This document shows, piece after piece, positions 7,971 to 54,542 of a stretch of 64,000 bases of DNA (position 1 is the first letter of the stretch; each line of letters opens with the position of its first letter). Location: NCBI GenBank assembly GCA_976551045.1, contig CDPCPM010000007.1, forward strand, positions 22,072,001-22,136,000, given 5' to 3'. The position numbers and the translations under genes are program-made. Source of the DNA: Glaucostegus cemiculus. Taxonomy: Eukaryota. The notes below the pieces were generated by a model. That model was not told where the DNA came from, searched no databases, and saw only the letters and a program-made list of their open reading frames with translations.

Positions 7971-8144
7971 GCAACAAGCTAGCAATTAACTTTGAACAAC
8001 AGTTATTCCAAACAGCTTTGAATATTTTGACATATCATCTCTGGCCAAGATCAAGAACAACTGGTATTATCTTAAAACAAGCATATCTGAATCGAGTGGC
8101 AGAGGGAGTGAAACTATTGCAGGTCCTAGCTACTTCATCTTCAG
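7971..8144 (+). CDS. Internal coding exon A of a putative multi-TIR-domain gene (end of a TIR-like domain plus linker)
   Basis: Acceptor tgttttgatttgtctctcag|G; 174 nt open frame, phase 1 to phase 1, (G)NKLAINFEQQLFQTALNILTYHLWPRSRTTGIILKQAYLNRVAEGVKLLQVLATSSS; ends at consensus GC donor CAG|GCAAGT; phase matches the exon at 45531. 'GNKLAINF...F...L' resembles the betaE/alphaE end of TIR_2 domains (recognised by eye). Confidence 0.7.
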
Positions 8145-8634
8145 GCAAGTCAACATAGTCCATCATTCACAGTATTATTTTAGAAGTGACTTTGGTTATC
8201 TGTTCAGTATAGCCTAAAAAAACCTAAGTATGATTTAAAAAATGCATACGTGTGGAATTGAGACATGTGTTTTGCATTTCAGATTTTACTACTGCAGAAA
8301 ATTTAACTCATAGCATCTGCCATTTGATTGGTTTCTTAATGTTCTTATTCATTAGAGTCCAATATGCTTTGGCTTTATGTAAGCACATCATAATGATACA
8401 GAGAAGACACAGAGGTGTAATATCCATATTTGAAGATCTATTGTGAAAAATGCTGATACAGACTTTGAGGCCAAGAAGACACTTCATCATAGAATAGAAA
8501 TGAATCTGAATGAGTTTAAGAAAAAAAACACACACAGCTGATTCATCTTACCTCATTGAACCAAATCTATTAAATAATGAAGCTAAATAGTGAAGCCAAT
8601 GTCTGTTAACCAGGACTAATTTGCTTATTTAGAG

Positions 8635-9090
8635 ACTCATAGAGTTATACAGTATGGAAACAGGCCCTTTGGCCCATAATGTCCATGCTGACCAGGATGC
8701 TCATCTATTGCTAATCTCATTTGTCTGTATTTGCCCGTACTTGCCTCAACCTTTCCTGTCTATGAACCACTCCAAATGTCTGTTAAACATTGTAATTGTA
8801 CCCGTCTCAACCACCTCCTCTGGCAGCTCATTCCAAACACCCATCACCCCCTGTGAGAAAAATTTTCTCCTCAAATCCCATTTAACTCATTCCCCTCCTA
8901 CCTTTACTGTTTAAACTCCACAATTCTGGGGAAAAGAATGTGACTATCAACACTAAATATGCTCCTCATAATTTGATAAACCACTACATGGACACCCCTT
9001 GGTCTCCTTTGCTCAGGGAAAACAGACGCAGACCATCCAATCTCTCCTTATAACTCAAGCCCGCTAGTGAATCTTTGCTGCACTCTCATC
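8635..9090 (-). mobile_element. CR1/HER1 LINE 3' fragment
   Basis: catagagttatacagtatggaaacaggccctttggccc tail and ccacctcctctggcagctcattcca, the canonical antisense CR1 3' end. Confidence 0.85.
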
Positions 9091-10395
9091 CTTCCGATAT
9101 TTCTCTATAACCTTTTTTTTCTATTCCTTTCTTCCATCCTCCCCCCTCCCTCTGCATCCTGCATAAGAGGAAGCTGATGCAAGATCTAAAATAGAGAAGT
9201 GCAGGTTATGATGCAAGGAGAAACTTGGAAACAACTGATGAAAAATGGCAGGCTGTATTTTCCTGGAAATATCTTAGGCAATGCAGTTTAATTTGACATT
9301 GCAGCCCATTTGCTTCTTTTCATGGCAGTGGCTTCAAATCTTAACTAAACAATGTTAACTTTCAGTGATTCCAAGCCCAAGTGTATCAAATATGCCTCAG
9401 TGAGATTCAAATAATATGTAGTTGGTTGTACAGTACGATCAAAACATTACTCTGAGATGATGACCTCAGTTTTCATATGAGAAATGAGTGGTGGTTCTTC
9501 TGCTACAACCAAATCTTTTCCTATATGACCTCCACCTAGTACAGCACCATTAAATTAATATTACTCCCCCATTTCATATACATTTCCTTTGTAATGTCTT
9601 GCACCTACTTGTATTTAATAATGTATTTTATATTTTTGCCCAGATGTAAATATTGTACGCTCATGAAGTATATTATTTGCAACAATATAAAATAAGTAGG
9701 TGCAAATGGTGTTCCAGACTTTCAGAGATCAATACTGAACACCAACTGCTTTATAAAAATAATTGTGTCAACCATTCTATAATGCGACTACTTTTGCTCA
9801 TCTTGATGCTATTGAAAAGAAGTGGAAAATGAACCCACGTTGATGGCCTATGGTGTCCCACCAGCAGGAAGAAGTGTTGATGTTCAATGAGATGTATGAA
9901 TATATTCAAAAGAACAAAGTATGCAATGCAGAAGTAAAATTACCACCCTGAAGCTGAATCATATTTATTAAAACACTTCGCTATTAATGACATTGACAGT
10001 CAGCTTTCATTGCCTTCTGGAGATTGTGTGATATGTCCAGTCACTTAATTTTTTTTTTATTTCCCTGTTGTTCATTGATAATACAGTCTTTTTTGATTTT
10101 ATTTCCAGTGCCAAGTGATATTTAGCTCTAGGCTTGTATTAGATTGTTTGAAATGACTTTGCAAATTAATGGTGAGCAAGACTACCACTATTATACAAGT
10201 TTAATTTGTAGATCATTTAGGTCATATGTATCCTTTCAACCTTATGAATTTATTATGGATAGAATTCTTACTTGACAAAAATATTTCCACAAGCATGGTG
10301 ACTAAAAGATTACAACTTTTTGAAGTGCCCAAATACTGAAAAGTAATGTTGACCATTCCTTCCAGTGGCAATCCTTGAATTCATTATACTCGTAA

Positions 10396-10478
10396 TAAGA
10401 TAAGATATCTTTATTAGTCACATGTACATAGAAGCACACAGTGAAATGCATCTTTTGCATAGAGTGTTCTGGGGGCAG
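10396..10478 (-). mobile_element. 5'-truncated SINE tail (same family as 56970-57250)
   Basis: taagatatctttattagtcacatgtacatagaagcacacagtgaaatgcatcttttg...gggggcag closely matches 56971-57046. Confidence 0.8.
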
Positions 10479-10832
10479 TATTATCATGTAACCGAATAAT
10501 TTTGTTTTGAAGATCTTGGTAGAATTTTTTAAGGGCTCACTGCTATTCTCAACATGATTTTTATCAGTAAATAATGTTCGTCTTCTTAGTTACTTATAGC
10601 AGAAGATGGAAAAGATTAGTTACGTGATGCAGAGATACCTGTTTACCATTTTGTCATCAACTGTATCTGCAAGCACTGTCACAATTTGTTGGAGTTTGTC
10701 AATAGATCTGGGCACAAATCTGGAGATTTTTTTCAAATAAGTTTTCAACTAATTTAAACAAATGGGAGTTATTGGAAAATAACCAAGTAGTGGGGCTGAC
10801 TGATCAGCAGAAAAGTATCTGAGAAATTGGAC

Positions 10833-10935
10833 ATAAAAAGAAAAGATGCTGGAAATAGTCAACAGGTCAGTCAGCATCTGTGGAGAGAAAAACACAGTCA
10901 ACATTTCAGGTCAATGATCTTTTGCTAGAACTGAT
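10833..10935 (-). mobile_element. Penelope-like element terminal fragment
   Basis: gaaaagatgctggaaata..caacaggtcag.cagcatctgtggagag is the reverse complement of the terminus of the Penelope element at 60750-60850. Confidence 0.7.
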
Positions 10936-11614
10936 GCAAGCTTATACCATCTACAACTTGTAATTCAGGAAGGAGTACATCTATGCAGCACACAGATACC
11001 CTGCTCCTACATCACCCACCACTCTCTTATTGTCCTGCCAATCTTCTGCAGCTACGCATTGAGAATCTGAATGTATAAATACATTTACATGTTTGTCTCT
11101 TGAGAAAATTCATTATAACTGATTCACTTTTTTCCAATGTTTCATTCCAGACCATTCATTAGCTAATATACACACACTGATCCAGTTATTTGCTAAATTA
11201 AAATGTAGTTCCCTAGGCCTCAGGCCAAAAGCTTCCTGCTTATTTTGAAGTTACTGTATAGTCAGACTTGCTATGTAATAACCAGTATTTGTTAGCTTCC
11301 GAATTTAATTCCCTTCTTTGCTCTCTACTTACTTGCTTCTTCACTATTAGGTCTCCTCCTAGCATACTGTGTACTCAATATTCCTTGGGCAACAATATAT
11401 CAGACTCCTTCCAGTACCTACCTCACAGATTAGAATGGTATGTGTCTTGATACAGTATTATGCCTCTGGCTGCCTCTTTTCTTTCCTTTGCTAAGCCTGT
11501 GGGATGGTGTAGAATGTAATAGACTAATTACTTGGTGTAGATATAGGCCATCATGGGATCATTGGGACAGAAGGCTTTGGTGATTGTTCTATGATTTTGA
11601 GGTATTAAATATAA

Positions 11615-11790
11615 GATCTTAGAGGAGGAGCTATAAAGCAGGTGAGAGAGAAGTCCTATGCCTGCAGTGATCCAGGAAACCTTTCGGAAACACAGGCAGA
11701 GATCTATGGGACATATCACCCTGGAAGTTTAGGCTGACTCAAATGCTGAGTGCAGCCCTGCATTTGATTCAGTGATTTCACTCAGGGTCA
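11615..11790 (+). mobile_element. Harbinger Myb/SANT-like ORF fossil
   Basis: Frameshifted LEE..REVLCLQ*SRKPFGNTGRDLW.HITLEV resembles the Myb/SANT-like 'EEV..RREVL.P...R.P....R.W..IA.EV' pattern. Confidence 0.4.
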
Positions 11791-13079
11791 GGGAATGGAA
11801 TACATTGGCTCAGTTCACAAAATCTCAATCACTCAACAACCATGAATCTCTATCAATCACTTCCCTTTACTCCAAGCCTCACACTCACACTTCACAGTCT
11901 GCACACACTTCACATGTTCACCATGATAGTCACACTTCCTGAACATATTAGACAACTTTCACTGACACAACCTTCCTGCAGGACAAAATACTCCATGACA
12001 GGATGCAGCAGCAACTGATCAGAACTCCATTTGTGTTGACCTTTACTGGAAGTCCTTGGTTGATGAAGTGGAACTGAAAATGTTGAAGGTGTTGGTATCC
12101 TCAAACCTAATCATCCTTCCATTAGTGGATAATTTTTTGAAAGATGAGGGAACTAAGCATCATGAGGAACTGGCACAGAAGAGGTGATAAGTCATCAGGC
12201 AGTTCAGCCAGAACCATATTAAATGGTGGGACAGATAGCTTACTCCTTCTGTTTGCTTATGTTTTCTTCAGACTTAACATTTTCAGGTAATATGTAGCTC
12301 TCTCATTCTACTCACCTTCCAATTCACATTGTGTCTTCTCTCTTCTGGATACCCAACTACTACAATCTGGCCAGTGGGCAGAGGAAGAAGACAGTAATGA
12401 TAAAGACGTACATTTGCTCGATTTCATACTTGTTCAGTCTTCACCTAGAACAGATATGGGAAGTGCATGTGGTGAGTCACTGGATCCAACTAGTTTGCTG
12501 CCAGGTTAGGGAGTAAAGATAATTTTTGATCAATGCTAATCCAAGGAATGTGTAGCCAATCTTCTTCCATTGTGTAAATGTTAGAAAACACCATTAGCAT
12601 ACTTTCAGACCCAACAATAATGCTGTGTCTGATGACACGTATTGCAGTACTAGTTGCAGTCATATCACATATCAGGTCCATATGCTATGAATGATCAGCT
12701 TATTGACATGGTGCTTTTGGATTATAGTGTATGAGGGGGCTTGCAGGGTTTTGCATCACTTCTGCAATTCGTCCTCCAAGAGATTACAAAGAGGACTAAG
12801 AAGTACAAATGGGTCTTTGGAGCACTTAACTTGCTGCCGTCTCTCAGGAACATAGCATTCATCTCCCTCCTCTCATGTCCCCTCCTCCTTATCTCCCTTT
12901 TACCAATATTCTTGTGCAGTCAGCCCAGATTGAGGGAAACAATGCAATCTCAAGTTGCTTAAAGTCATTTTTCAAAATCCTCAGAAGTCTCTTTTACTGG
13001 CATTCATACCATTTTTAATCAATGTAGATAGCACAAAATGCTTGCAGTTATTAAAGAGTCCCTGTCCCCAAAAACAAGA

Positions 13080-14107
13080 CATCCACGAGTTCCCTCATCA
13101 AATTCCAATATGCTGATGACAACTGTGTTGCAGCTCTCTCAGAAAACCACCTACAACAGATTCTGACTGCCTTCATCCGTGCGTAAACGGAACTTGGACT
13201 TGTCATCAATTCCAAGAAGACTCAGATCATCTACCAATCATCACCAACTGAGACAAATCGGATAGAACCATCAAACCAACTTGGCGAAACAGCCCTGGAA
13301 AATGTGGATCACTTTGCATATCTTGGAAGTTACCTCTCCTCCAATGTCGGCCTTATGACGAGATCCAACATTGTCTTAAATGTCCTGGAACAGCTTTTGG
13401 ATGTCTCCGAACAAGAGCCTTTCATGAGCGGGACATCCGAACAGATACTAAAATGTTAGTGTACAAAGCAGTGGTGATGCCAACATTCATGTATGCATCA
13501 GAAACTTGAACAACATACCGATGACATCTGAAGGCACTTGAAAAGTTCCATCAACGCTGTCTTCAAAATATCTTAAATATCAGCTGGGAAGATAGAAGAA
13601 ACAATGTCAGCGTACTAAATGAAGCAAAAACAACAAGCATTGAAGCCTATGTTATCAAGAATCAACTAGGATGGTGCGGTCATGTTGTTTGAATGAAAGA
13701 CGAACGTCTACTGAAACAAATCTACTCCCAGCTTAAAGTAGGCAAACGTAAAAGAGGCAGACAACAGAAGAGATTCAAAGACGTTTTAAAAGCCAACATG
13801 AAGAAATGTAACATCAACATCAACAATTGGGAAACCAATGCCAAGGACAGGAAAATCTGGCAAGCCATCATCCGAGAAGGAACAGCAACTTTCGAAGCCA
13901 ACAGATGTGCAGAATTAGAGGAAGGGAGAAGAAAATGGAAAGAGAGGCAGCAACAACCAAAGCCTGATTTGCCATCTGGAACTACCTGTCCTGAATGCGG
14001 AAGAACTTTCAGAGCCAAGGTTGGACTCATAAGGCACTTGAGAGCCCATAAACAATCAACGGAATGAAGACCATCATCCTCGACCTTGAAGGATAGCCAC
14101 TACAACT
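13080..14107 (+). mobile_element. RTE (BovB-like) LINE, 5'-truncated, disabled
   Basis: QYADD RT motif at ~13107; YLGS; SET*TTYR.HLKALEKFHQRCL; C-terminal CCHH finger CPECGRTFRAKVGLIRHLRAH (ORF 13693-14067); short 3'UTR ending ggatagccactacaact. Confidence 0.92.
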
Positions 14108-15027
14108 TCCATGGGGCCCGTTGCTCCTGTGGAACACCACACTGGTGGGTACGGTATAGCTTATGGAAGGGTGTTGACTTTGAATGGAAGGAGCTTTAGT
14201 TAGTCTGGTTGTATATTATTATAATAGGTTCAGAAGACTAAATGGTCTGTTCCCTCATATCAGAAAAATACATGTAACATCAACCCATATTCCACTGTTA
14301 GGTGAAATGATGGGGTGAAAAAGTAGATTCATAGAATTATCACTAATATATTAATTTACTGCTGGTGGTAATTTAAGGTCTGTATTATGTCAACCGAAAT
14401 TATTCAAATTTATTCAGAGCTATTTGGAATCAAAACATGGAGTTAATACACAAACAAAGAGCAGCACCTGTAGTCTGAGAGATAACAGGATCATTTTAAA
14501 ATTACAGAGCACTGTTGGGGTTCAAGAAATTATCAATTGTACCCTCATGACTACTAGTACATAGTACAATAGTGATACGGTGTCAGTTAATTACAAATGC
14601 CTTTTTTCACTCTGGGTATTGTTTTCTTTTGAGTGCAGCAGCTTAACTAGATCATTAATCCATTTAAAATTAATACCAGATTCCAACACAAATTTATGGA
14701 TTTGTGAGAACTTGCATACAAATTGGAGCTTAGCTTATGTTTAGTGCATTTCTTTTTAATCATTCTCACAGCTCAAAACAGAAAATATATTTTAAAAAGT
14801 TCCTACTTTAATTGGATGATCTATTAGCCCCAGGGCTCTGTTCTTTTCATTTGTGATTTTCATTCCTTGTCCCTTTTCTGCTGCCAATTACGCCACTGCC
14901 ATCTCAGCCGGAATATCTGTACTCTTCCTTCAAATGTAAAACTGGTGCTCTATTAGCCATGGGAGCATATCGAGACAAGTAAACATCCATCTGCAAGCAG
15001 CCCCACCATCATTTACAGCAAGAAAAC

Positions 15028-15350
15028 AACATAAGACTACAAGGAAAAAGGAGCAGGAGTAGGCCACCTGGCATCTCAAGCCGGTCGCACCATCCAATCT
15101 TATCACGGCTGATCTAATTCATGCCTCCATTCCTCTGTGCCAGATCACCATAGCCCTCAATCTCTCTAACTTTCAAATATGTAGCTAACTCCACTTTAAA
15201 AATTTCTTATGAGTTAGTCCCTACAACTTTTTGGGGGCAGAAAATCCAAAGGCTTACTACCCTCTGTGAGAAGAAATTTTGACATACCCCAGTTTCAAAA
15301 GACCAGCTCCATATCTTGAAACTATGTTTCCTCAATCAAGACTTTGCCAC
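15028..15350 (-). mobile_element. CR1 LINE 3' fragment
   Basis: aacataaga...ggagcaggagtaggcca tail; accctctgtgagaagaaattt. Confidence 0.75.
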
Positions 15351-17094
15351 TGGATTCTACTGGCAAAACAATTTGATCATTATTTCAGTGCTCTTTTTAA
15401 AAAATGTTAGATCTCTAAGATGGTTCATACAGCTTGTGCATATTTATGAGATACCATATTGTTAAGGGTATTAGTCAACTGCGGGAGAACACCTGCAACC
15501 TTGTGCTTCACGGAGGTACCCTACCCACTAACCTGGCTCCAGGCCACTTATATCCTGCGTTTCATCACATGCAAATCCCTTCCCTATGCTACCTTTACAA
15601 AAAGACATAACCCACTGGTGTGAAATTGGGTGATGATACTTTTCACTATCACTGTTCTTGTGGCTCCTTCACCGTGTGCACTGATTGGATGTCTGAAATA
15701 AAAAGCTATTATTGTAACGTGCAGAGAAGTATCAGAGTAATAGGTGTGTGCTTACTTTATTCAGTGCAGGTTATGAGAAAGGTAGGATGTGAGAAGGACC
15801 AGGAAAAACAGTGGCACAACTTTGGGTTATCTCTGTCTTGCTGATGGCCACAGCTGCAACAGCAACAGTCCATTACCATCCCTTCCAGGTGGATTAGTTT
15901 GTAGGGGTACTGTTGCCTCTGCCTATATTTCACCCTACTCTTCAAGAGGAGGTCACTAGCTTCTGTAAACTGTGCTTGATTTAATGTTCTTGTTTTGATT
16001 GAGGCACTGACAGTATCTGCAGGATGTGTGCTTGGGGAGCTGGCTTGAAGCTGTGCTGTTTCAGGGTGTGGTCAGGTACGAGTCCTAATTATTAACAGCT
16101 CTTTGCAGATGGTTGATGGAGAAGGTAATGGATTATCTTGTACCTGAGGCTAGCTGTGCAGTCAAGATTCACTGACAGAACTTGACTGACCATAAGAGCT
16201 CATAGAATTATGTCCTGTTCTTCAGAACTTGACTCTTGGCATTGACCTCAAGGTGATCTGCTTCCACTACCTTCTGGACATTCAGCTGGAGTGTGTCTCA
16301 GTTTTGTGCTGGTACAGGATATCTTTCCCATTTATCCTATATTCCACCAAAGCCGACAGTACAGTGGTGAAAAAACCTTGTAGCACACTCTCTCCTTATC
16401 TGTATTGTCCTTCAATAATACTCAGGTCTGAGTCACTTCCCATATAACTGCCTGCATTCCAGCTGCAACTGCCCCAGCATTAAAAGGCACAAGCTACTTT
16501 TAAGCAATACCAACTAAATCTAGCTGGAAACACAAAACAGTTACTGCTGGTTGGACACTGAAACCTTTGACATGGCTGGCAAATTAGGTTGCTTTGCATT
16601 CAGTGGGTGTCAATTAATAGCAAACTGCACTTCCTGTTCTCTTTTAGGGGGCATTTGGAAATAGCCTCTTCCCTGTGGCTTCCAGTTTTCAGACTGCAGA
16701 ACTCCTGAAAATGTACTTACAAACCCAGCATCATGTTTCAGAAATGTATTAATAATTAAGATGGAATGTTGCACTTGGTCTCTTGGAGTAAGTGCATTGT
16801 ACGCACTATTACTACTATTGTTGACTTCTTGGAACCATATTTTGAAGTTGAGTACAGTGAGCAATTCCTTAGCACAAGTGGCTGAAAATAAATTTCTACT
16901 CCTCAGCATGTAGTTGTGTCGCTTCAATTATGGGCTCTAATTACAATAGGTTTACTCTCAGAGCTGTAGGATATTTAGTGGGAGTCTGGTTCATGATGTT
17001 ATGATTAAATAACTCTAAAATTGCCTGTGTACTTGGCCTAGAAATGAATTGCTGCACCACCGTGTCATTTATTGAGCCCAGATTTATGGCAAGG

Positions 17095-18560
17095 AGTGAA
17101 AACAGAAAATGCTGGAAAACTTACCAGTTCAGGCACAGGCATATTGAAGCCAATTCCATTCATTTCAAATATAAACAGGAATGCTGGAAGCACTCAGCAG
17201 CATCAGTGGAAAGAGAAACTGTTAACGTTTATCAGAACTGGGAAAGAGAGAAACTAAGTTAGTTTAGTTGGCAGAGAATGTGGGGGATAGGGATGAGAGA
17301 AACAAAGAAAATATCTCCGATAGGATGAGATATTATGGAAGTTAAGGGACCATTAACTTCCGATTTAGCTGCTTTTGTCTGTGTGTTGGGTTGCTAATAG
17401 TAACCTAGTGGGACATGTCCAGAAGGCCAAACTATTTATAAAAAAAGAAAAAAACCTAAGCCAAAATGCTGGCAGGTAGAAATGGTCAGTTATTGTTTAC
17501 CTGCAATGCACTCCCCTGTAGCTGTCACACTTTACTCTGTATTCTGTTATTGTTTTTACCCTGTACTACCTCAATGCATTGTGTAATGAATTGACCTGTA
17601 CAAACGATTCTGCAAGACAGGTTTTTTACTGTATCTCGGTACGGGTGACAATAATAAACCAATACCAATTCCAATAAGAAGAAAGAGTGACTTATCTAAA
17701 ATAGGAGAATCCAATCCTGAGTCCCTCAGGCTGCAGGGTAACCTAAGAGAAGATGAGGTGTTGTTCTTCAAGCTTGCATTTAGCCTATTTGTTATATTGT
17801 AAGAGGCCACATTCCAAAAAATCAGTGGGTGTGGGATGGTCGATTAAAGTAGCAAGCAACTGGAAACTTCGGGTCACTCCTGTGGACTGAAGGCCAATGC
17901 TCCACAAAGCGATCACCCATTCTGCATTTGTTTTCTCCAATGCAGAGAAGGGTATGTTACAAACACCGAATGCAGTACACAAGACTGGAAGACGTGCAGG
18001 TGAATATTGCCTCATTTGGAAGAACTAGATGATGGGCAGGAAGAGGTGAAAGGGCAGGAAGAGGTGAAAGGACAGGTATTGCGACTCCTGCCGTTGCTTG
18101 GAAAAGTGCCATAAAACATGGAATTGTGGGTGGGAACGAAAGAGCAGACCAGAGAGTCACAAAAGGAGCAATCCTTTCAAAACGCTGAAAGGTGAGGAGA
18201 TGGGAATGTCTTTGGTAGTGAAGCCTTGTGGACAGTACAAAGGAGTGGTGGGATAGGAGGTAAGGACCAGAGGAACTCTGTTCTTGTTCTGTCCAAGGAG
18301 CGAAGGGCTGAGAACAGAGGTATGAGAAATAGATTAGATGCAGTCAAGGACTCTTTCAAGTACAGCAGAGGGGAAACCACAGTTCAGGAAGAAATAAGAC
18401 ATTGCAGGGGCACCTGTGCAAAATGTCTCATCACCCGAACATGTGTAATGGAGACTGAAGAACTTAGAAAAATGGAATGAAGGCTAAATGGAATAGAGGC
18501 TTAATATGGATATCAAGAGAACCGATAGATCTGAGGTTAATACAGGAAAATTGCACAGAA
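17095..18560 (-). mobile_element. Penelope-like element 3' half (GIY-YIG endonuclease plus terminus), interrupted by a Rex1 tail
   Basis: Minus strand LCIGENKCRMGDRFVEH (~17900-17950) is the GIY-YIG 'YIGET.R.L..RF.EH' motif; terminus aacagaaaatgctggaa at 17100-17240. Confidence 0.75.
17495..17675 (+). mobile_element. Rex1/Babar LINE 3'UTR fragment nested in the Penelope element
   Basis: ...ttttttactgtatctcggtacgggtgacaataataaaccaataccaattccaat, a Rex-type tail with short terminal repeats. Confidence 0.65.
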
Positions 18561-18699
18561 ATGAAAGATTTAGCTGTAAACTCATTGGATGGCAGAGGAG
18601 GCATGGGGGTAGGGGATCAAATAGCTATTCCCGTTTCTATGTTTTTGAAAGCAGATTATCTGGTCAGATTAGCAATGCTATCTGTATGAGATGGCTGTG

Positions 18700-18825
18700 T
18701 GCAAATTGGCTTCTCAGGTTACAACATTACTGTAGTGACTATACTTTAAATTTATTTCATTACCTATAAATTATTTGAAGATGCCCTGAGTTTTTAAAAG
18801 GCTATTAATGTGCAAGTTTTTTTCT
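18700..18825 (+). mobile_element. Ancient DeuSINE/L2-type tail
   Basis: cattactgtagtgactatacttt...aaaggctattaatgtgcaagtttt; antisense copies at ~24740-24790 and ~61310-61400. Confidence 0.5.
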
Positions 18826-19549
18826 TCCTAATCAGCAACTTTATTAAATTAGTGCATAGGGAAATTGTATGAATAATTAAACATATTTTTGAATGTCGTT
18901 CTGTTGTTCAACTGCTTACTGATGCAGATCTAAGTAACCTTTTCATCTATCCAGCATGAATTAGCAATAATATCTGATTTACAGTATGAGTGTCTGATGC
19001 TGACAGGTGGCAACAATGGAATAAATATTTGATTCTCCAGGATTAGCATTCCCAAATTCACACTAGTGTCCTAACAAAAATTGTTTTGAAGTATATACTA
19101 TACTTCAAAAGTTTCAAAACAGATTTCTTGTTCAAAGAGTTAAAAAAGCATCACAGAATAATAGCATATTTTTTGCCAGTTAAAGTTAAACAGGTGAATT
19201 TTCTGAAGGATAGGTTATGAAGAAATCATACACTCTTCCCCTTTAAGGTGGCACCAGATTAACTTCCTTGCAGCAAAAGGAAATGATAGTTTCTTACTAA
19301 ACATGGTGAATAAGTATGAAGTAAAATAGCATTTTAATCCTATTTTGAGTGACCATGTTCAAAAAATATGGTCTGAATTGGCACTTCATGTAATATTTTT
19401 AACCTTTACTGAGCTGAAAGTGAGACAAACTACAGTATCATTAGCCATGGTGAAGATTGTTCCTCTCAGAAACTTATATCTTTTTAACTTTAGTCAGACC
19501 ACACTTGGAGAATTGTGTGCACTTCTGGTTATACCATTATAGGAAGATT

Positions 19550-19662
19550 GTTGAGATATGGATGATACACAGGACAGGGACATTTAGTATAAATTCACAT
19601 CAAGACTGGCACAACATCGTGGACTGAATGGCCTGTCTAGCACTGTACTGTTGTATGTTCTG
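19550..19662 (+). mobile_element. CR1 3' tail fragment
   Basis: ggcacaacatcgtggactgaatggcctgt...ctgtactgttgtatgttct. Confidence 0.65.
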
Positions 19663-20244
19663 TTACAGCATGGTAAAGATGCTTTTACAAGCTAAATCTT
19701 AATTATTTTGATATCTTTTATAGTGGTCAATTTACGCCTATTGTCATCTTTTTAAGTACAGAAATGAAAAAAATATTTTCTAGATCAGTGAAAAGAACCT
19801 ATAGCATGAGTGGCAAATTTCTGTTCTACAGTGTATTCAGACAACTTCAGCAGTCAAATATAGAAAGTTATGAAGAACTGGGCATAAATCATCAGCAGCA
19901 TTAAAATTCACTAAGACTTTCTTTCAGCATCCTACTTTCTCTTCTCCATCCCAATTCATTTCTATTATTTTTCTAATGAAAATGCTGACATACCAGGATA
20001 AAACTCAACCTTGCATGGGCTGAAGAAACTTCTTTTCATGTGAACCCAAAAATAGACTGACAATGGATTATTAATTATGAAAACTTGGTAAGCAGTTAAT
20101 TCCTGGCATCTTTCACATAAGAATTTTTCCATCTGTGCTCAATGCCTAATAACAATGAGCAGAAGAATAATGATTATTCTTTGTCCTTGCTTGGACACAG
20201 TGAAGCCACACTTGCTCTCCAGCTGCTGATTGACTGCTTCAGTA

Positions 20245-20850
20245 TGAAGATAGTGATCTCTGCCCTCCTGTACAGTTCTGAGACATGGACAACTACACCA
20301 GACACTTCAAAACACTGGAGTGGTCTCTATGCAATCCTTCAATGGCACTGGGAGGATTAGTGAACCAACATCAATATTGTCTCCCAGGCCACCATCCCTG
20401 ACATTAAATCCCCAATTTCACTCAGTCAGTTTTGGTGAGCTGGCCATGTTATACATATACCCACCACCAGGACCCTGAAGCAGGCACTCCAAGCTCTGTC
20501 ACTGTGAGAGGTTACAAGGTAGACAGTGGAAATACTCTAAGCATGTTCTCAAAACCTCTTTGAAAAAGTGTAACATCCTTTCTACCTCATAGGAACCCAG
20601 ACCTATGACCACTCAGTAGGGAAAAGGAGCATTCAGGATTGAGGACCCTGAGTCCCTTCATCAGGAGAACCTCGAAGTCCAAGATACACAAACTCCCAAG
20701 CTACCCACCCACCCACCTGCATAGTCAAGCACTTCCTGCCCAACCTGATCAGAGTCTGTGGATCCCATTTGGGCCTCAACAGTCACCTCAGAACCATAGA
20801 ACCAACAAGCTCTCCTAGATTCTGAGAGACTGTTGGAGAAGAAGTCTGCT
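20245..20850 (+). mobile_element. Old RTE LINE 3' remnant
   Basis: VISALLYSSETWTT; ILQWHWED; degenerate zinc-finger end (gggcctcaacagtcacctcagaaccata = GL.SHLR). Confidence 0.75.
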
Positions 20851-21799
20851 TCAGCACAACCAAGGATTAAAGCTCATTCGTCTCTGCTCTTTATGTTTCA
20901 GCAAGCGGTTCGCCTAGCAGTCTGTGGAATCTGGTGGAACAGAAAGTGGAGTGATGATTCTTTGCCTGTCATTCATATATACCCAAGACAAACTTTATCC
21001 CCATATGCTAAACATATTTGCTCTAAGTAACATATAAACGATAAGAATAATAATCTTACTGTGTGTGTTTAGTGACTGGCAATTGTCTCTCAAGTTTAGT
21101 GTTTTTTATGCATTTTTTTCTCTACTCCTAAAAGCCCAGTCTTGAGTTGGGCAAAGTTCACAGATGTAATGGTGAAGAAGGACTGACTGTTCAGGCATTC
21201 AGTGTGCCTCTGATGCCCTTAACTGTTTTCATCCAACTTGTGCACAAATACACTTTTCAGCAATGACCAGTGAAGAGTATTCAGAAGCAAAAATACTTAA
21301 GCCCAGACTGCAGAGGACATCTTTATTGTAACTATCATCCTGCAATAAATTGTCTTAATGCTGGATTTAGGGGTTAAACCTGAAGCCTTCCTCTCTGTGA
21401 AGATTATTGCTGTGCCAGTATTAATTTACCTATAAGTGCATGTGTTTAATGCAATTCAGCTGGAGGTCTGCATGAATAAAACTATTTTTTTTTAAATTGC
21501 TGACTCTATCTACTGCTATCTAAGTACAGATCCTGTTTTCTCTTATAGAAGCGTATTCTCTTGGTTGAAAATGTTGCTTCCAAGAATTTGAAGAAGATTC
21601 TGACTTTAAAAAAAAATCAGTATTCAAGTGAAATTCTTGGAAGAAATGTTATTTGTTTTACTGTTTTAAATATTTATTGTATTCATATACAGGCAAATGC
21701 TACCTAGTAACAGGTTTTATGTTACTCCATATACACTATTACAATGGGAACCTACAAGAAGCTGTAATGTTTCCACTGACATTGACTTGGCTCTAATAA

Positions 21800-22185
21800 G
21801 CAACGTAAGTTAAAGCCAATTTACCACCTGTGTATTGTGTCCAGGCTGCTTATCATCTACTGAATGTATGCAGATACTTCCCATGCCTGTACCAGCCACA
21901 TCTCCCAAATCCTCAACTTCAATCATCAAGAAAGATAAAGCCACCAGGCATTTTGAAACACCACCACCTGAAGGTTCCCTGCTAAGTCACGTTCTATCCT
22001 AATTTCAAATAATGATACTCTTTTTTTGTCATTGCTTGATTTAACTTACGGAATTCTTTATCCCACAACACTAATTATACCATCACCCAAACAAAACCTA
22101 GCAACGATTCAAGAAATGGCTCACCATCACCTTGATGGACAATAATTGCTTGTCTTTCCAGTGATACTCACATCCCAAAACAGAA
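21800..22185 (+). mobile_element. Old CR1/L2-clade LINE 3' end
   Basis: ccaccacctgaaggttccct.ctaagtcac and ggctcaccatcacctt...ccagtgatactcacatccca tail. Confidence 0.55.
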
Positions 22186-39716: not shown

Positions 39717-40449
39717 CATTGTGTTTGTAAATTCATTGCTGGACAATCATGATGAAGCATTGAGAAATGCAGTAATATCACTTTGGAGGATGCATGCTAC
39801 ATGGTGATTGCTTAGTGGAATGTCTGTCAGAACATCTTAAGTTAAATGACACTAAGGAACATTGATTAAGGGAATCATATACTGTAGATATCTCTTTGGA
39901 TATCCCTTGCCTCACAATGTTCTGTTTCATTGTTATCTCATATTTCCACCACCCTAGGAGTGAATTATTTGTTTAAGACATTTCTGGTTTGGATATGCAA
40001 ATATAGTGATCAACATTGAATATTTGTTGTGCAATTATCATAGTGTTTCAATATTTCACATACAATCTGTAGCAGCAGGCTACATTTCTACAATATTACT
40101 TTGATTAAACAGGGAAGCTGAGAGTACATTTGACTCAGCAAAGCTTTTGAGGTGACTACAAGCAGTTCTGTTCTAAGTGAAGTCATATGACATGTTAATG
40201 CATCTTGTTAAAGAGCCTTCAGATCATTGAATATATGCTACTAGAATTCTCCTGTGTACTGAAGCTTTTACATCTTTATGAATAAGCTCTATGATGTTAT
40301 GTTACATTATAGGCAAACTAAACCTTGACCAGAGAAGTGGATAGAGATAAACTATTCAGGAAGCCTCCATAACAATATTCAGATTATTCAATGTCGTGCT
40401 GAAGAAACAAGTATTGGGACAAGACTAGAAGATCATTCCTGGTATCCTT

Positions 40450-40900
40450 CATATGTCACCCACTGTCATTCTGCCTTCGTCAGACATGTTCTGGCGAAAT
40501 ATGATCCAAAGCATGAAGATGGATCTTGCTGAATCAAGCCCACCATTCGGAATCAATGCCTATGCTCTTCCTGCACTTACTTTAGTCCACATGTGTGTGT
40601 TGAATCTTGCTGGTTTCTGCGGAGGCATCTGATAAGGCACAGCAAGGCATCAACAGGACTTCACAAAGGCAGTGGCTGCTCTCTATCCACTAACATCCAC
40701 CCACTCCAAAATGAAGATTGCTCTGTCTTCCAAGTTCCCTCCCACTCCAAGCTGGAGTTTGCTTCTTCTCTCCTGGGTGTCCACCTACCTCAAGACGGAG
40801 GCTGCGCTGCCTCATGCTCTAAGCTGGGATCTTGCTCCATTCCAGACAATGCATCAAGATTAAGAATTGGCACCACATCTTACACTTCCTGCTGCAGCCT
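40450..40900 (-). mobile_element. Degraded RTE-like 3' remnant
   Basis: Minus strand RWTPRRE (resembles WTP.G.R.RGRP) and a KC...GL degenerate finger. Confidence 0.35.
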
Positions 40901-41619
40901 TTGTGGATGATGTGTGATCTCATTGCTTGTGTTACACTGAGAATCCTAATATTGATGCTAGTTGAAAGATATTCCAAAATTTAACAGTGATATACATAAA
41001 GGCTGGTAATACATTTCTGAGTTTGTTTTTCATTATTCACTTTATCATTTGGACAAAAATAATAAATAATGGAAATTCATAATTTTTGTCCAAATGATAA
41101 AGTGAACAATGAAAAACAAATGTCATTAAATAAGTTATCAGTGAATGTAGTAAAAGTGAAAATTCAGAACACAAATCATCTATATTTTTCCCTACTGCAA
41201 TAATCATAGCAAACATATCATGGACAGTGTTAAGAAAGATGGGCACACCCTTTGAACATCCCCTGATTCATTTTCTATTTTACTGCATTTGTTCATATAG
41301 TAAAGTCAGGATACCAAGACCGTGCACACTGCTGCACTAACATTGAATACAACATTGTATTTGGAGTTGCGCCAGTTAGTATGCAAAGGGCCACTCCAAG
41401 ATGGCGATTCATATGATTTGTGTGTGTTAGTCACTTCATAATGAATCAGGATGCTGATTTGTTCCTCTGTATACTAGGACTGATTGAATGATGCTGATAT
41501 AGTAATTATAAACATCACACCTCCTCCAGCTTCAACCTAGGTGATAGCCTATGGGGGTTAATTATGGTCCTGGTGCTGAATGAACAACAAACGTGGTTGC
41601 AAAATGCTAAAGAGCAGGT

Positions 41620-41861
41620 TGTAGCGGCCCGCGTTTGCAGGACTCGAACTGCCATTGGCAGCCCTGGGCGAACGTGCAGGAGCGCATCGTAGACATCGCG
41701 GGGCGGGCCTTCCGGTGGGAGACTTGCGTCACATCCATCAGAGAGGCCACTTAGTATTTTTGCGCATTTTGCATATTTTTGTTTCAGTTAGTAAAGTGTG
41801 CCCCAGCTCAGCCGCCACGTCTCTGCGTCTTTCTTCTGACCACACATCGCGGTCGACCACA
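41620..41861 (+). mobile_element. Solo LTR (242 bp), probably Gypsy/Ty3
   Basis: TG...CA ends; imperfect terminal inverted repeat TGTAGCGGCCCGCG vs TGTGGTCGACCGCG (10/14); 4-bp TSD AGGT at 41616-41619 and 41862-41865; AGTAAA polyA-like signal ~41790; CpG-rich. Confidence 0.85.
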
Positions 41862-41929
41862 AGGTTACAGTTAAACACAGTGGACACAGTGAAGATTTAC
41901 TGAAGTTACCTTCTGGCTTCTCACAAAAT

Positions 41930-42090
41930 ATGAAATTCCCCCTCCTCTTCCCACACTTTCAAGAGATTTCTGCTACCAGAAAGATGTGGCCAGAGGTGGC
42001 CCTGAAGGTTAGCAGCAGGAACACAGCTTTATGTGCATGGAACCAATGCAGGAATCATTTCAATGATCTCATCATTATCAGGAATGGCAA
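41930..42090 (+). mobile_element. Harbinger Myb/SANT-like DNA-binding ORF fossil
   Basis: ATRKMWPEVALKVSSRNTALCAWNQCRNHFNDL matches Myb/SANT-like 'AW.EVA..V.......R.W.QCRK.FNDL'. Confidence 0.75.
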
Positions 42091-45000
42091 ATTCAGTTGC
42101 ATATTCTCCCACACCCTTCCCATGTGCTACTAAGTTGTTACAGGAGCCATTAGCTCTGTTTTTCTCTCAACAGGTCTACTGGATATTTCAAGCATTTTAT
42201 ATATTTACTAATCTACGTTTAATGAGGAATGCTATTGTGAGCAGAAATATTTTACAGATATGTATTAATGGCTTTATTATATAACACTGCACATCATAAT
42301 TTCAACTCATGTGGAGATATTACTAAAACAATAGAAAAACTAAAAAGAATTTGAAAGGATTTTCGGCACAAGGAAAACACTAAATGTTGCAAAAGCAGGT
42401 ATTTTTTTAGCATTTAAAAAAGATCCAAGAAAAATTTGATCTGAAAGATGCAATAATATTACACCAAAACAATGTCTTGTAACAAATTACTTCTAATTTA
42501 CTCAAATGATAAAATAAGTTTTGTAAAACAATATCAGTTTGGAACATAATTTACAATAAGTGAAATTCAAGCAAGTTTCTTGGTGTAAGAATTTTCTAAA
42601 AGTGTATTCCTTTGATTAATAAATCACATGTTTGAGTTTGTTTAAATTTAATAGAAACAATTAATTTGTTGTGCATATGAGAAGGTAAAGTCACTGCCAT
42701 TTTAGCTTTTAATAGTTACTAAGTGGGAACAGAGAGGCAGAGGTCATTTTATTGGGCTTGCTACACCCATCCATCACTTTTGCTTCAAACCTTGCCTCCA
42801 TTTTTTTCCTGGGGACCTTCAGCAAAGCAGCTTCAGTGCCCAACTGAACTAAACAGAAGCTCCATTAAATTATACAAAAGCAAAGTTCTTGGGTTCCAAT
42901 TATAATTATGAAGCACAAATCAGTGGATTTTGTGCTGCATTCACTCCATTTATTTTTATTTTGTGATGAGCAGAACTCCATAAGTGGGCCACTTGAGACG
43001 ATTCACTAAACATACCAAGACACTTCCATTGTATTTGTAATGGGACAAGGGAGAGTAAAATGGCTAAAAAGCAGGGGTAACAATGTCAAATTTGGATCTC
43101 ACTGGACACCTCCTTCCCCTTACCTCACATGGTACGTGATAGACTGACCTCAAAAAGGCTTCATACTTAATTTAAAGGCCCTCATTTACCAGCATGGCCT
43201 CAGTTTACTTCACTATAGAAAGGTTCAAACGCTAAAAAAAATTGGATGTTTCAGATGGTTGTGTTAAACAGACTGAGAAAATGAACTAAATGTTCTTGCA
43301 CTGCAAGAATAGAACCAGGTAGATGTTAAGAGCTACTTCACTCAGAGGGAACCTTATATTTGCAGAGTAAATTGCCAGCCAACTCATTGGTTCATTGATT
43401 TTGGCCTGGGCATTTTTGTTTCCATGTCTTGTCTTTCTCAAGAGATGGCACAGGAAGTTGGTGGATGGTGTAGGAGATAATGAAAAGGCACGCTGTACAT
43501 CATTCAGCATGACAGGATGAGGCAGTCTCAATGGATCTGCTGATCTTTTGTCATTCATTTCAGGATAGAAAAGTAATAAATATAAAAACAAGAAGGTCCC
43601 TTTGCCCCCTCAGTGCAAAAGAGTTGCTTTGAAAATAAATATATATATTATCCTGTTTGCCTGTTGTCCACATGGCCTGTAGATCTGTAGCTTATTAGTG
43701 ATCTTTTTATGGCACAGGATTTAGAAATCACAAATCCCACCTGAGTTCTCTAATCCCTCACATTACATTCACACAGTGCATTCAGGCAAAGATGGTTGGA
43801 CGAGCCAAGAGTTCACTCCAAATACTGGGCATTCACAGGTAAAATGTATCCTACAAGGACCAATTGTATGTCAAAAAATAGTAACCTCTTTGATGTATAC
43901 TTTGATTGATGTATTCTATGGGGCTGAAGGCACTCATAATTTAATACAATTATAGTGTGTCACACCTGAAACCCTGGATCATCAATCACATAACCTTGTT
44001 GCTGCCATACTATGACAAACTAGGACTATAAAAGAGGCTCTGATATGTACTTTTTTTCTTGAACTCAGTGATTGAATGGAGGAAATGTCCTTTGGGGGAT
44101 GTGCTGTCAGCCAAGACAATGACTGAGCTGTGTTTATTCAATTTCTTTTGTAGATCATGAAACACTTCCACAGGAATGTTTCATACATGGCAATTTCCAT
44201 AATATCTGGTAAAGATATAAAGATAGATGTAATATCCCTGTTTGGAACTAGAATTACAGTCAGGACACCAATTTAAACTGGTATTCTGAACATTTCATCT
44301 CATTAATATTAACAAAGTGACTTGAGTCTTATCAATTTAAAATACCTTATTGCACTTATAATTATTTTATCAATAACAGCACAATGTAATGTTGACTACT
44401 AGCAACATTGAATGGCAGCTAAAATCATATACTTTGATCTAGAATTCAATTTGACCCATTTTTAGTCTTCTAATAGATGCTACATTTAACCCTATCATCA
44501 GGGAGACATGCAAAAAAATCACTAAATTGGTAAAATTTGCCTTTGAAACAAAATCATAAGGGTGGCTTGAGACTTTTATTACTTTATTGACATGATGCCT
44601 GCACATTTGCTGATGGCAACTGTCTATAGAGCTTGCAACTGCTGCGTCACTCTGTCTCTGAATGCTGGGAAGTGAGTCAGAGATTTAAAAGTACACTCAC
44701 CATGGCTGCCAGTGTATAGGGAAAGCAGGCGGAGGTGGGGGATTGCTGCTTTGTAGTTGGACTGGAATCGTCTGTGTGAATGCCTGAGCCAATGGGCCCT
44801 CAGGCACAGATCATACCAAGCACAGTGATTGCAACATCTTGAATTGAGATAAGTAAAACAGAGATCATAACATAGAATCATATTGGAAGCAAGACATCCT
44901 TGATTCTTAGGAACAGAAGGAGAAGAAGCGATAGCTGATTTAAAAGATGGCAGTGGGATGAGAATTGAGTATTATCAAATATCACAGCAATCATTAGTGA

Positions 45001-45530
45001 CTTGTCCACTTCTATGTTATGATTCAAGGATGATAAAAACATGAGAAGCACAAACCGGCAGTGTCTGAATAACCTCATACTCGTTAAGATGAAGAAGCAA
45101 TTAACAGTTTGAAGAGGAAGACTATTGATAAGATCAGAGAAAGAAATGTCAGGGAGATAGTAGTTGTGGATTCATATGGAGAATCTACATCTCTTTCTGT
45201 TCATTAGCCACTACTGAGACATATCATGAATCTTTCAAGATACTCCCATGGAAAGCAGCATGCATGTCTCTCCCAAATGGATGCTTTTAGTCTCCAATCC
45301 TATTTTCTTTCTCAGATGTGCAGGAACAAGATGGTACAGATAACAAAGCAGCAAAGCCTTTCAATGACATTGCTTTGTGTTAATCTTGGGGCAGGAGTTT
45401 GGGAAATCATGGTATTATTTTCTTGTTTCTGCTCATTGGGTGAAGGATTGTTTTCTTAGAATCACAATCCTGTATGGATTTGAATGCACATTATCCTGTT
45501 AATGATTCTGTGATTTTTTTCTCCCTATAG

Positions 45531-45610
45531 CCTCAGTTTTCTGGCCTTTTGACAGTGATGAAGTGAACCCCAAAGTATTCATCAGCTACCAGTGGGATGT
45601 GCAGTCAAAG
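45531..45610 (+). CDS. Internal coding exon B: start of TIR_2-type domain (Box 1)
   Basis: Strong acceptor tgatttttttctccctatag|; 80 nt, phase 1 to phase 0, (A)SVFWPFDSDEVNPKVFISYQWDVQSK; donor AAG|GTCAGT; VFISY is the TIR betaA motif. Confidence 0.9.
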
Positions 45611-51180: not shown

Positions 51181-54100
51181 AGGTATCTGTGCCAGAGTTA
51201 GTGAAGTATAGAATCAAAGGAACAATAGTTATTTTATGCATCAGTATTTTTGAATGGGAGGTTTTGGTGTACGGATGAGCTGTGATAGACCCCATACACC
51301 AATTTTTTTCATATAAGATTTGGAGGAGACAATTTATACAGAAGCAGAATGAATGTTGATGCAGCTGTTGTTAAGTCAGGAAGTCGAGTTTGAGTATGCC
51401 CTTCAAATAACTCCAGTAATTCAAAAGTTGTGAGGTAACATTGTTTGTACTTTGATTAAAGCCACTTGACTTCCCCAGTGATTCATTACTGCTGTAAGGA
51501 GCTGGGGTTTGACATTGTGATTGATGTGTGCATGTGATGTGTGCTGCTGTCAGGAGGTTTCTAAGTCCACATTAGAGGTAACTGAAGTTAGAAATGTTGG
51601 CAGTTAGAAATTTCCTAAGAAGCTATAATAACCAGGAGGGCCTTTGGCGATGTTTACAATCACACTAATAAGTAAGGCATATCACCTGACAACTGCTTAT
51701 GCCCTTTAATGAGGTGATACTTCACATGGTTGAATAAAGGATTAGAGGAGCTGAAGCTGACTTCAGATGCACAATAGTGATGGGAAAGAAATTACAGTGC
51801 TTTTCAATGTTGTCATGTGTCACATTGACAGGTTATCATTAAAGAAATTATAAATAATGCATTTTTCTTCAAGAGGTGCAAATACAATTTGTTTAATCAT
51901 CACCTTTTGAGAATGGTCAGGCACAGCCTTGTACTTAAGTAACACAAGCAGGGACTTTTCATGTCTCGTCTTTAAATTATGGACATTAAGTCAGAACTTC
52001 AGTGGCACCCTGAGCTACTCTTGTGTAAATGTCAGTCAATAGTTATTTAATGGCTTTTTGCTGCAGATTCTCCTTCATTATATGTTCAGCTTTTTTGTCA
52101 ATGTCAAACCACCAATTCTAATAGCAGTAATTTGTGGAAATGTTAAGTGCATTATTTTCCCATAGTTTCCCAACCGTTTAGTTCACTAATAAGACCACTT
52201 AAATGAGATGGACATTGGTATTGATTGACTGTGTCCCCTCAGACAAGTTTGGCTGATCATTTTACGGGCAACGACTGGACATCTGATACAACAAATTTGT
52301 ATTGTGATCATATTTGGACACAAGTACTGTACCTGCCAATTTGAAGAAAACAAACAAAAAGCAGTCTTCACCCACTTCTAAAACAACTGTAAAACCCTTC
52401 ATATTTACAAATTGGGATATAATTTCTGTTTTGACACCTCAATTGAAAAACAACCTTCTTCATCATTTGCTACTTGTGATAGTGCCTTGATCATCTGCAA
52501 GCTTTAAGGTAATGTAGACTCTGAAAGAGCAGACATGTTCCTACCAATCTCACTTCTAAAGAAAAGTTGCCATTGCTCCTAATCACTTACTTCCCTGAAA
52601 AGAGAGCAGAATAAGAGAAACCTGGTAGAACTTGTTGAATTTCAAGTCTAAAGCTAGCAAAGGCATGAATGAGAATTCAACCACAGGTAAAGTAAAGCAT
52701 ACATTATCTACAGTATGATCAAGGTCATGATATCTGTGTAATCATCCACAATAATCTCATGTACGGTGAGGCCCTCTTAAGTGAAGAAGTATTTTGAGAC
52801 AGAGAAAGTGGTGAATAAGATCATATTGATTCACATCACATTACAGTGACCAGCTTTCTTTTAGGTCACTGAGAAGTCCTTGGAAGTGTGCATTGTCTCC
52901 TGTGGGTAATATGACAAGTGTTCTCTGAAATTTTCATTTGCCAAATGTCATTTGTAGGGTGCATTTTGTTGAGCAATTAGAATGTTCCATCACAGTTGTA
53001 CTTTAGTAAAATCCAGCCATTCATTTTCATGCTCCCCACTTAAGGCAGTAAGTTGGATCAGCCTTCTTGATCCAGAACCCACCTGATGGTACTTGTTTAC
53101 TTCCATTATCTTTGTACCACAAAGGTTCAATGTCCTATCCACATTGCAAGTGGTTAAGCTCAATTGAAACAAATTTACAACTACAGGAAAACTTCATTAC
53201 TATGATGTATTTGGGATCTGGTGGTGCTGGACCAGCAGATTTTTGGATATTATTTCTAATAAAACCCCAAAACAATTTTAATTCACATTTTATTAACTAT
53301 TACACAGTAGAGTAATAAATCTTCCAGTGAACATGTTCAGTTTAAAGGGAGCATGGGAAAAAGAACAAGGTGAGTTTCAAGGGAGTGCAGGAAACAGGGC
53401 CTCTGTCAGTATAAGTGAGTGTGGGAGCTGGGGCTCCGGTTTGTTTAGAGGGAATGCGGCAACCAGGGCCAATGCATAGCAGAGGTAGCATGGGAACTGG
53501 GGCCTCAGAATGTTGGAATCAAAACATAGTGACCTAGCTGCCAAACCATCAGGGTTTGCTAATAGACTATGGATTCTCTGTATATGCAAAACAAGCCACT
53601 GCGTTGATATTCACTGTCTTTGCATTTTTGGGTTAGAAATCCCCCTGAGATTGTTGTTTATTTTTTTTATTTTTATAATGCAAATGTTAACAGAGAATAG
53701 ATTTTTGTTCATTATGGAGATATATCTACTTCAGTCTTAATAATTATTACAATGTTGAGTCTGGATTTTGATCAATTTTAATATTATTGAAAATATATCC
53801 AAATCACTTTATACATTTTTATTCAAATGACGCAAAAGATATTCTCTTGCAACTAATCGTACAATACATCATTATAGTGCAAAATTAATCTTCAATCTGT
53901 AGAGATAGTTTTACAATTCAGTCTTCAATGCCATAGTTCAATGGAAAACAATAGAAATTAAATATAATTATAATTATTAATTCATGCAAATTATAATTAC
54001 ATAATTTTATAAAAATATAAAATTATAAATCTCATAATACTTAATCTACCTGCTTCATGTAATACAAGAACATAATTTCAAGGGCAAATATATCATATAA

Positions 54101-54389
54101 CAACAACAGTATCAGATTAATATAAATCAACACATAATATGTGCCAATTTGTATAAATAAATTATAGGAATACATCCATTGATGTGCATTTGAACAAAAG
54201 GAAATCTTACTATAAATTCAGAACTCCCCTCTTTTATATTATAAATGTCACATTGTTAATGATAAAGTATTCATTTGTTACAAGATTGAATTGCTTTTGT
54301 AAATCTTAATGCTTTATATTGATGCTCATTTGCTCCTAGATTAAAAATGAGTGTGTGAATTAATAATACTTAAATCACAATTTTAACAG

Positions 54390-54542
54390 GTGCAGAAGAT
54401 GAGGGACTATTTGGAGGCTCATGGTTTGCCATGCTGGGCAGACTTGACAGTTCAAGGACAAAAATGGACAAGTCCTCATTCATCTTTTGTTTTTGATACA
54501 GCTGCAGAAATATTGCAGAGCCAAATACAAAGAACTATGAAG
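54390..54542 (+). CDS. Internal coding exon C: TIR alphaA-betaB-BB loop-alphaB
   Basis: Acceptor caattttaacag|; 153 nt, phase 0 to phase 0, VQKMRDYLEAHGLPCWADLTVQGQKWTSPHSSFVFDTAAEILQSQIQRTMK; donor AAG|GTAAGA; 'LE..G..CW.D' is the TIR_2 betaB motif and continues in frame from exon B. Confidence 0.9.

Follow-up and report, generated by a model that had tools for sequence, protein, structure and literature searches.

A predicted TIR-SAM-TIR-TIR gene of an invertebrate-type family in the cartilaginous fish Glaucostegus cemiculus, with two in-frame stops in its assembled copy

Two described systems stand closest to the gene considered here, which encloses the whole of a 64,000-nucleotide stretch of the Glaucostegus cemiculus genome (the window: positions 22072001-22136000 of contig CDPCPM010000007.1, here C7, in the 2.85-Gb assembly GCA_976551045.1; a window coordinate is the contig position minus 22,072,000). 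One is SARM1, which consists of an N-terminal ARM domain, tandem SAM domains and a single C-terminal TIR domain. The other is family 5 of the ecTIR-DC proteins, reportedly defined by Gerdol et al. in 2017 with bivalve members included. In one source, ecTIR-DC 5 is drawn as TIR-SAM-TIR-TIR, for example in the 804-residue Trichoplax protein TrispH2_000557 (supplementary Fig. S1), and ecTIR-DC proteins are stated to appear absent in vertebrates (PMC6321704). PMC5549309 only cites the ecTIR-DC classification, and a transcribed TIR-SAM gene is reported from amphioxus in PMC2575513. Nothing on a family of the ecTIR-DC 5 type appears in the available portions of PMC9440496, PMC8455134 (12 of the 24 whale-shark supplements) and 10.64898/2026.09.21.753143. 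No report of a vertebrate member was found in the literature searched; Gerdol 2017 and the tables of a 2026 animal-TIR study may list fish or shark members. The locus described below is a genuine gene, and it adds a vertebrate member to this known invertebrate family.

The preliminary description of the window had proposed, from three exons (A, B and C), a multi-TIR gene of TIR_2 type belonging to an invertebrate family, and it had called for the full gene to be recovered from flanking sequence. Both the proposal and the recovery were borne out. A genome-wide TIR_2 search gave 20 matches, 16 of them over the cut-off, and one of these, lying 63 kb upstream of the window on the same strand and containing an internal TAG, led to a large exon that codes for a TIR domain and most of a SAM domain. 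With the TIR of this upstream exon as query, two proteins, both from sharks, were found among 95 candidates; a profile based on the sharks then identified 14 longer proteins at E ≤ 1e-69 among 8000 candidates scored, 12 from named invertebrates (hemichordates, echinoderms, annelids, molluscs and a nemertean) and two unnamed. When these 14 relatives were mapped onto 464 kb, eight exons were matched in order on one strand, A, B and C among them. Three other, weak match clusters were dropped: one at E 2.5, one at E 0.042 in low-complexity sequence, and an intronic stretch matched by two of the 14. The predicted gene, whose splice sites were placed by eye, has eight exons over about 132.5 kb and 2073 coding nucleotides (690 codons); all phases are compatible, there is no frameshift, and all seven introns retain AG and GT or GC ends. 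Its product aligns with the relatives nearly without gaps all the way from TIR1 to the C-terminus, at a mean identity of 35–50% per exon. The locus is single: all six reported matches of one relative, P0015, fall here, and exon 1 is single-copy at the DNA level, with no second haplotype copy. That this is a TIR1-SAM-TIR2-TIR3 gene can be stated with high confidence.

The entire window lies inside the predicted gene, spanning introns 4–7 and exons 5–7, with five exons outside it. All exons are on the forward strand of C7. Exon 1 (22008966-22009941) encodes an N-terminal tail, TIR1 with Glu183 and most of the SAM domain, contains TAG at codons 41 and 212, and is matched by all 14 relatives. Exon 2 (22034282-22034358), for the end of the SAM domain, is the weakest, matched by six of the 14 with a best E of 0.94. 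The start of TIR2 is encoded by exon 3 (22053441-22053566; 14/14 relatives) and its core, with Gln438, by exon 4 (22070198-22070426; 13/14). Exons 5, 6 and 7, at 22079971-22080144, 22117531-22117610 and 22126390-22126542, are A, B and C. Exon 8 (22141177-22141434; 13/14) encodes the end of TIR3 with Asp627 and closes with TAA, and AATAAA signals follow about 260 and 460 bases 3' of this stop. The N-terminal tail (L038:6966-7260) matches the sharks for about 30 codons and thereafter in no frame; there is a strong donor-like GTGAGT about 45 bases 5' of the ATG, and an alternative 5' exon upstream of the ATG is possible.

For the three window exons, the coordinates and phases given in the preliminary description proved to be as described. 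Exon A (window 7971..8144, phase 1/1), B (45531..45610, phase 1/0) and C (54390..54542, phase 0/0) splice into a 135-codon open frame, against 11 and 6 stops in the other two frames. Exon A had been read as the end of a preceding TIR, and both the alignment and the model of a relative place in it the end of TIR2 and a linker; B encodes the first strand and helix of TIR3, with eight of eight conserved columns retained, and C its second strand, long loop and second helix. Each is matched in order by 13 of the 14 relatives, so the three exons are not chance matches. Pairwise E values are 4e-16 for A, 5e-9 for B and 2e-9 for C, these being single-comparison values against hand-picked best relatives, and none of the three overlaps a local repeat within the 464 kb examined. 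The splice sites had been called good, which is true of their compatible phases but not of every signal: the acceptor of C is weak (score −0.9 on a rough splice matrix), and the donor of A is CAG/GCAAGT, with GC in place of GT and otherwise ideal flanks. Because the GT four bases downstream would break the frame, the gene model needs a GC-AG intron 5 (window 8145..45530, 37.4 kb). When exons were called de novo with such rough matrices, A, B and the exons of a neighbouring peroxidasin gene were recovered and the other exons missed.

The TIR_2 profile check suggested for the window peptide succeeded only beyond the window. None of the three window exons matched Pfam when scanned alone, none of three protein candidates matched exon C, and the ESM Atlas returned for exon C only unnamed short clusters with recognition under threshold; the TIR label is therefore not confirmable from the window alone. 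Its sources are the full-length relatives, exon 1 (TIR_2 E 4.8e-7, over the cut-off) and exon 8 (E 0.0023, under it).

The domain order, TIR1-SAM-TIR2-TIR3, is that of ecTIR-DC 5, and the length is similar (690 residues against 804, with full-length relatives at about 600–820). Four relatives scanned with Pfam contain one SAM and no other domain besides TIR_2, of which there are three stretches in three of them and two in the fourth. The earlier tandem-TIR view was right about a multi-TIR protein and overlooked the SAM domain, a third TIR, the ecTIR-DC 5 family and the two in-frame stops of exon 1. An AlphaFold model of P0015 (pLDDT, a per-residue confidence, 68; pTM, a predicted template-modelling score, 0.35) has three TIR-type units and a SAM domain. 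TIR3 of this model matches the SARM1 TIR with Z 17.2 and a root-mean-square deviation of 2.4 over 128 aligned residues, a score that SPARTA and Hydra TIRs equal; for TIR2 the matches to TIRs lie at Z about 15, and TIR1 is not among the listed ranges. The best PDB matches of the SAM domain are SARM1 and TIR-1 of Caenorhabditis elegans (15 sequences, E 8e-11 to 4e-8), the next family following at 0.005. In the ESM Atlas, the top match with the shark protein P0001 was a 603-residue mollusc SAM/TIR_2 cluster at 0.87, which is a lead only.

The likeness to SARM1 raises the question whether the gene is SARM1 itself, or else some other known TIR gene of vertebrates, the relic of a transposon or horizontally acquired sequence. 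In UniRef both shark fragments bear the name ‘NAD(+) hydrolase SARM1’, and the top Foldseek matches for the whole P0015 model are SARM1. SARM1 and TIR-1 have in common with the present protein a SARM1-like SAM domain, the TIR fold and the acidic position of helix alphaC, and SAM-driven assembly of TIR domains would likely be the same principle in both. The layouts differ: SARM1 has an ARM domain and two SAM domains, whereas here there is no ARM, one SAM and three TIRs, and the TIR bearing the glutamate precedes the SAM domain. Moreover, a SARM1 TIR exon lies elsewhere in this genome, on contig C489 (E 7e-24 to human SARM1), so that the shark fragments are mislabelled. As for a relic or a foreign insertion, the exons are single-copy and non-repetitive, and the gene has long introns, vertebrate genes on both sides and an orthologous exon in two sharks. 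All these identities are largely refuted and are scarcely credible, and the statement in the preliminary description that this is no canonical vertebrate TIR protein stands.

The two shark proteins, GCB83396.1 from Scyliorhinus torazame and GCC25884.1 from Chiloscyllium punctatum, are respectively 81% and 74% identical to the present protein over TIR1 and represent an orthologous exon 1; their alignment runs to the same exon end. In a protein tree the three chondrichthyan rows cluster together (100/100); their stem is long, the cluster lies apart from ambulacrarians and spiralians alike, and within it this genome stands weakly outside the two sharks (81/51); the tree is unrooted, and the shark rows fill 38% of its columns. 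The invertebrate TIR_2/SAM proteins P0003–P0016 (e.g. XP_021372208.1 and XP_033645107.1), themselves uncharacterised, are collinear with the present protein. The gene is likely a vertically inherited, cartilaginous-fish member of the ecTIR-DC 5 family, distinguished by its vertebrate host, by changes in TIR2 and, in this copy, by the two stops in exon 1. No bony-vertebrate protein appeared among the matches of the word-limited TIR1-exon and profile searches, and a loss of the gene outside the cartilaginous fishes is put forward as a hypothesis.

The residue at the catalytic position of helix alphaC, which the preliminary description could not place within the window, lies, for TIR3, 5 kb beyond the end of the window in exon 8, and is Asp627 rather than glutamate. 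The corresponding residues are Glu183 in TIR1 and Gln438 in TIR2, and on the P0015 model the position is the sixth helix residue in all three TIRs, in one register. The glutamate of TIR1 occurs in 13 of the 14 relatives, in both sharks and here (16/17 rows). TIR3 has aspartate here and in all 13 relatives compared, so that this domain, the one seen in the window, is probably not the enzymatic unit; in a weakly aligned stretch its aspartate aligns with the glutamate of TIR-1. TIR2 has glutamate in 13 of 13 relatives and glutamine in this genome. It is also selectively eroded, retaining 41 of 67 conserved columns against 93 of 115 for TIR1 and TIR3 together (p 0.005; TIR3 by itself 47/56), a pattern that fits long selection on a protein in which TIR2 catalysis had already gone. 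TIR1, outside the window, is accordingly the only TIR with the catalytic glutamate and the candidate enzyme domain. The Lymnaea relative P0011 shows the reverse of this genome, with glycine at the TIR1 position and the glutamate retained in TIR2; a single catalytic TIR may be enough.

The assembled copy does not have an intact reading frame. The TAG at codon 41 falls in a tail without conserved sequence, with Met49 shortly after it. The TAG at codon 212, where the sharks have Glu or Gln, would remove the last strand and helices of TIR1 as placed on the P0015 model, and a TIR1-only product ending there was rejected because it would be without them. In this single-copy gene the stops amount to a disabling lesion. 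Apart from them there is no frameshift and no lost splice site, and exons 2–8 are fully open. In both sharks, by comparison, exon 1 has no stop from the first Met onwards, in 317-residue models ending a few residues past the exon end. Three-frame comparison of the N-terminal tail revealed no compensated frameshift. TIR1 retains 46 of 59 conserved columns here against 48 and 44 in the sharks, and the radical share of lineage-specific changes is 12/29 here against 10/29 in the sharks (p 0.79), with no signal of relaxation relative to the sharks at the protein level. Under a rough neutral model with assumed rates, the absence of any further lesion has a probability of 0.03 at 2% divergence. Taken together, the columns kept, the absence of excess radical changes and this low probability indicate that any decay is young. 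Fifteen of the 16 over-cut-off TIR_2 matches in the assembly have no internal stop, 13 of those in frames of 721–1072 residues; since other long TIR frames are uninterrupted, an assembly error is disfavoured, though a base error is still possible. This copy is likely a recent null allele or a young pseudogene, and that it is non-functional seems rather probable to us. The preliminary description had the gene ‘kept in chondrichthyans’; the exon 1 of two sharks speaks for this, and the two in-frame stops make ‘kept’ doubtful for the present copy.

It might instead be supposed that the gene is intact and functional in the species, TAG212 being a base-call error or one polymorphic allele and TAG41 being bypassed through Met49, with a dispensable tail. 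The conserved core has a single lesion, every intron keeps its ends, two relatives (P0011 and P0015) start right at TIR1, and the failure of the tail beyond about codon 30 to match the shark tails in any frame suggests that the stop at codon 41 may be old and tolerated; the constraint is, besides, specific to domains and not uniform. The uninterrupted state of the other long TIR frames in the assembly, the lack of a second haplotype copy and the presence of two stops within one exon nevertheless make this supposition an unlikely one, if worth keeping in mind. Alternatively, translation might restart at Met237, 25 codons past the second stop, so that the locus makes a shortened SAM-TIR2-TIR3 adaptor with no enzyme activity. 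This methionine is lineage-specific (Lys in 13 invertebrate rows and both sharks), the exons that follow are open and TIR3 is well conserved. A new methionine among 20 changes can, however, be chance, and TIR1 before the stop should then decay, yet lineage-specific changes are fewer there than beyond the stop (9/108 against 20/113, p 0.047). Premature upstream stops are also expected to trigger nonsense-mediated decay. Such an adaptor is improbable.

The explanation that we prefer, with modest confidence, is that of an eight-exon ecTIR-DC 5 gene, inherited vertically, of which this copy is a recent null allele or young pseudogene. Intact copies would encode a soluble protein of the cytosol that assembles with itself through its SARM1-like SAM domain. 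With TIR1 domains thereby brought together, the retained glutamate (Glu183) would cleave nicotinamide adenine dinucleotide (NAD+); the ADP-ribose or cyclic ADP-ribose (cADPR) produced would serve as a signal, or else NAD+ would be drained. TIR3, with its aspartate, and the degenerate TIR2, with its glutamine, would take the place of the ARM domain of SARM1 as a scaffold, sensor or brake without catalytic function. By analogy, intact copies would presumably be NAD-cleaving immune or cell-death enzymes; that TIR1 in particular is an NAD+ hydrolase in intact orthologues is put forward tentatively, at somewhat under an even chance. The link to enzymatic TIRs and NAD+ drawn in the preliminary description survives in part: the TIRs are of the TIR_2 type and TIR1 has its glutamate, but the TIR on which the link was based has aspartate. 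Recent work employs fusions to the SARM1 SAM domain to activate TIR enzymes, in a manner that needs the glutamate (10.1101/2025.03.15.643477), and animal TIRs with the catalytic glutamate, other than those of Toll-like receptors (TLRs), can make cADPR (10.64898/2026.04.20.719644).

The opposite view treats the family as TIR adaptors or scaffolds without enzyme activity in TLR-type signalling, their glutamates being structural remnants; it is possible, if a little less so than activity of TIR1. An adaptor or regulator role is hypothesised for ecTIR-DC proteins in PMC6321704; no activity was detected for 49 of 61 Glu-bearing animal TIRs tested in 10.64898/2026.04.20.719644; and TIR3 has aspartate throughout, while TIR2 has lost its glutamate here. 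What tells against it is the retention of glutamate in TIR1 and, among the relatives, in TIR2, together with a SAM domain resembling the one whose fusions activate TIR enzymes.

Several points weigh against the vertically inherited, enzyme-encoding gene that we prefer. The shark evidence is limited to exon 1, so that an intact full-length vertebrate gene is an extrapolation, and no vertebrate protein containing exon C was found in the search with that exon. The tree is compatible with vertical descent, but the stem is long and there are no outgroup or other chordate rows. The ecTIR-DC 5 assignment was made by architecture, as distinct from sequence comparison with named members; bivalve proteins with this layout are among the matches at E 1e-69 or better. 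The stops, the GC-AG intron and the splice junctions are predictions from the assembly sequence alone. There is one SAM domain where SARM1 has a tandem pair, and domain packing is not readable from a model with a pTM of 0.35. As to catalysis, 12 of the 61 Glu-bearing animal TIRs were active in the study just cited, so a glutamate is no guarantee of activity. TIR1 by itself had no PDB sequence match at E 10, and its profile alignment with TIR2 or TIR3 gave no alignment, for which reason the placing of its glutamate depends on Pfam TIR_2 and the helix register of the model.

The wider proposal, that cartilaginous fishes keep an overlooked SARM1-like enzyme with one catalytic TIR controlled by two non-catalytic ones, lost in bony vertebrates and being lost again here, is speculative and on balance doubtful. 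If it were true, jawed vertebrates would gain a second SAM-assembled, NAD+-cleaving switch, and bony vertebrates would have lost it from between a peroxidasin-like and a gamma-syntrophin gene. A TIR family that had been said to appear absent in vertebrates is in any case now extended to cartilaginous fishes with a full exon map, where the searches made had on record only two exon 1 fragments, both mislabelled. Shark TIR1 becomes a specific candidate for a second SAM-linked TIR NAD+ hydrolase in vertebrates, and the peroxidasin/gamma-syntrophin-like interval a locus for dating losses across vertebrates. This is tempered by the facts that the family and its layout were already known, that enzymatic animal TIRs are now widely reported, and that the present copy looks broken.

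The flanking genes are of vertebrate type. Upstream of the TIR gene, at about 21.92–21.99 Mb of C7 on the forward strand, lies a peroxidasin gene, so named from its peptides. A long peroxidase exon occurs at three loci in the assembly (on C7, C37 and C46), and on C46 a peroxidasin-type gene stands near an oppositely oriented peroxidase gene, an arrangement that suggests that the C7 gene is a paralogue, probably of the PXDNL type. Downstream, at about 22.23–22.31 Mb on the reverse strand and thus convergent with the TIR gene, are syntrophin-like exons, of which one of four scanned matches Syntrophin_4th at E 4e-4, under the cut-off, and to which we presumptively give the name gamma-syntrophin. 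In the human genome PXDNL and SNTG1 are neighbours, with no such TIR gene known between them.

An Rfam scan of the window gave nothing. About 14% of the window is locally repeated. Intronic open frames like decayed retroelement fragments lie at window 26052-26444, 28811-29239, 31090-31518, 50258-51197 and 59015-59961, and one of three such frames scanned has a weak RVT_1 match (E 0.027). Tandem repeats are trivial, and a perfect 35-bp tandem duplication occupies window 46360-46431 in intron 6. Elsewhere in the assembly, a strong TIR_2 match (E 7.6e-12) on the forward strand of a second contig (C15:21388959-21389267) lies in a 157-residue frame with a glutamate near the alphaC position; this frame has no close solved relative, the best being TLR2 and plant TIRs at E 6e-4, and may represent a further unusual TIR gene of vertebrates or else a TICAM that has diverged.

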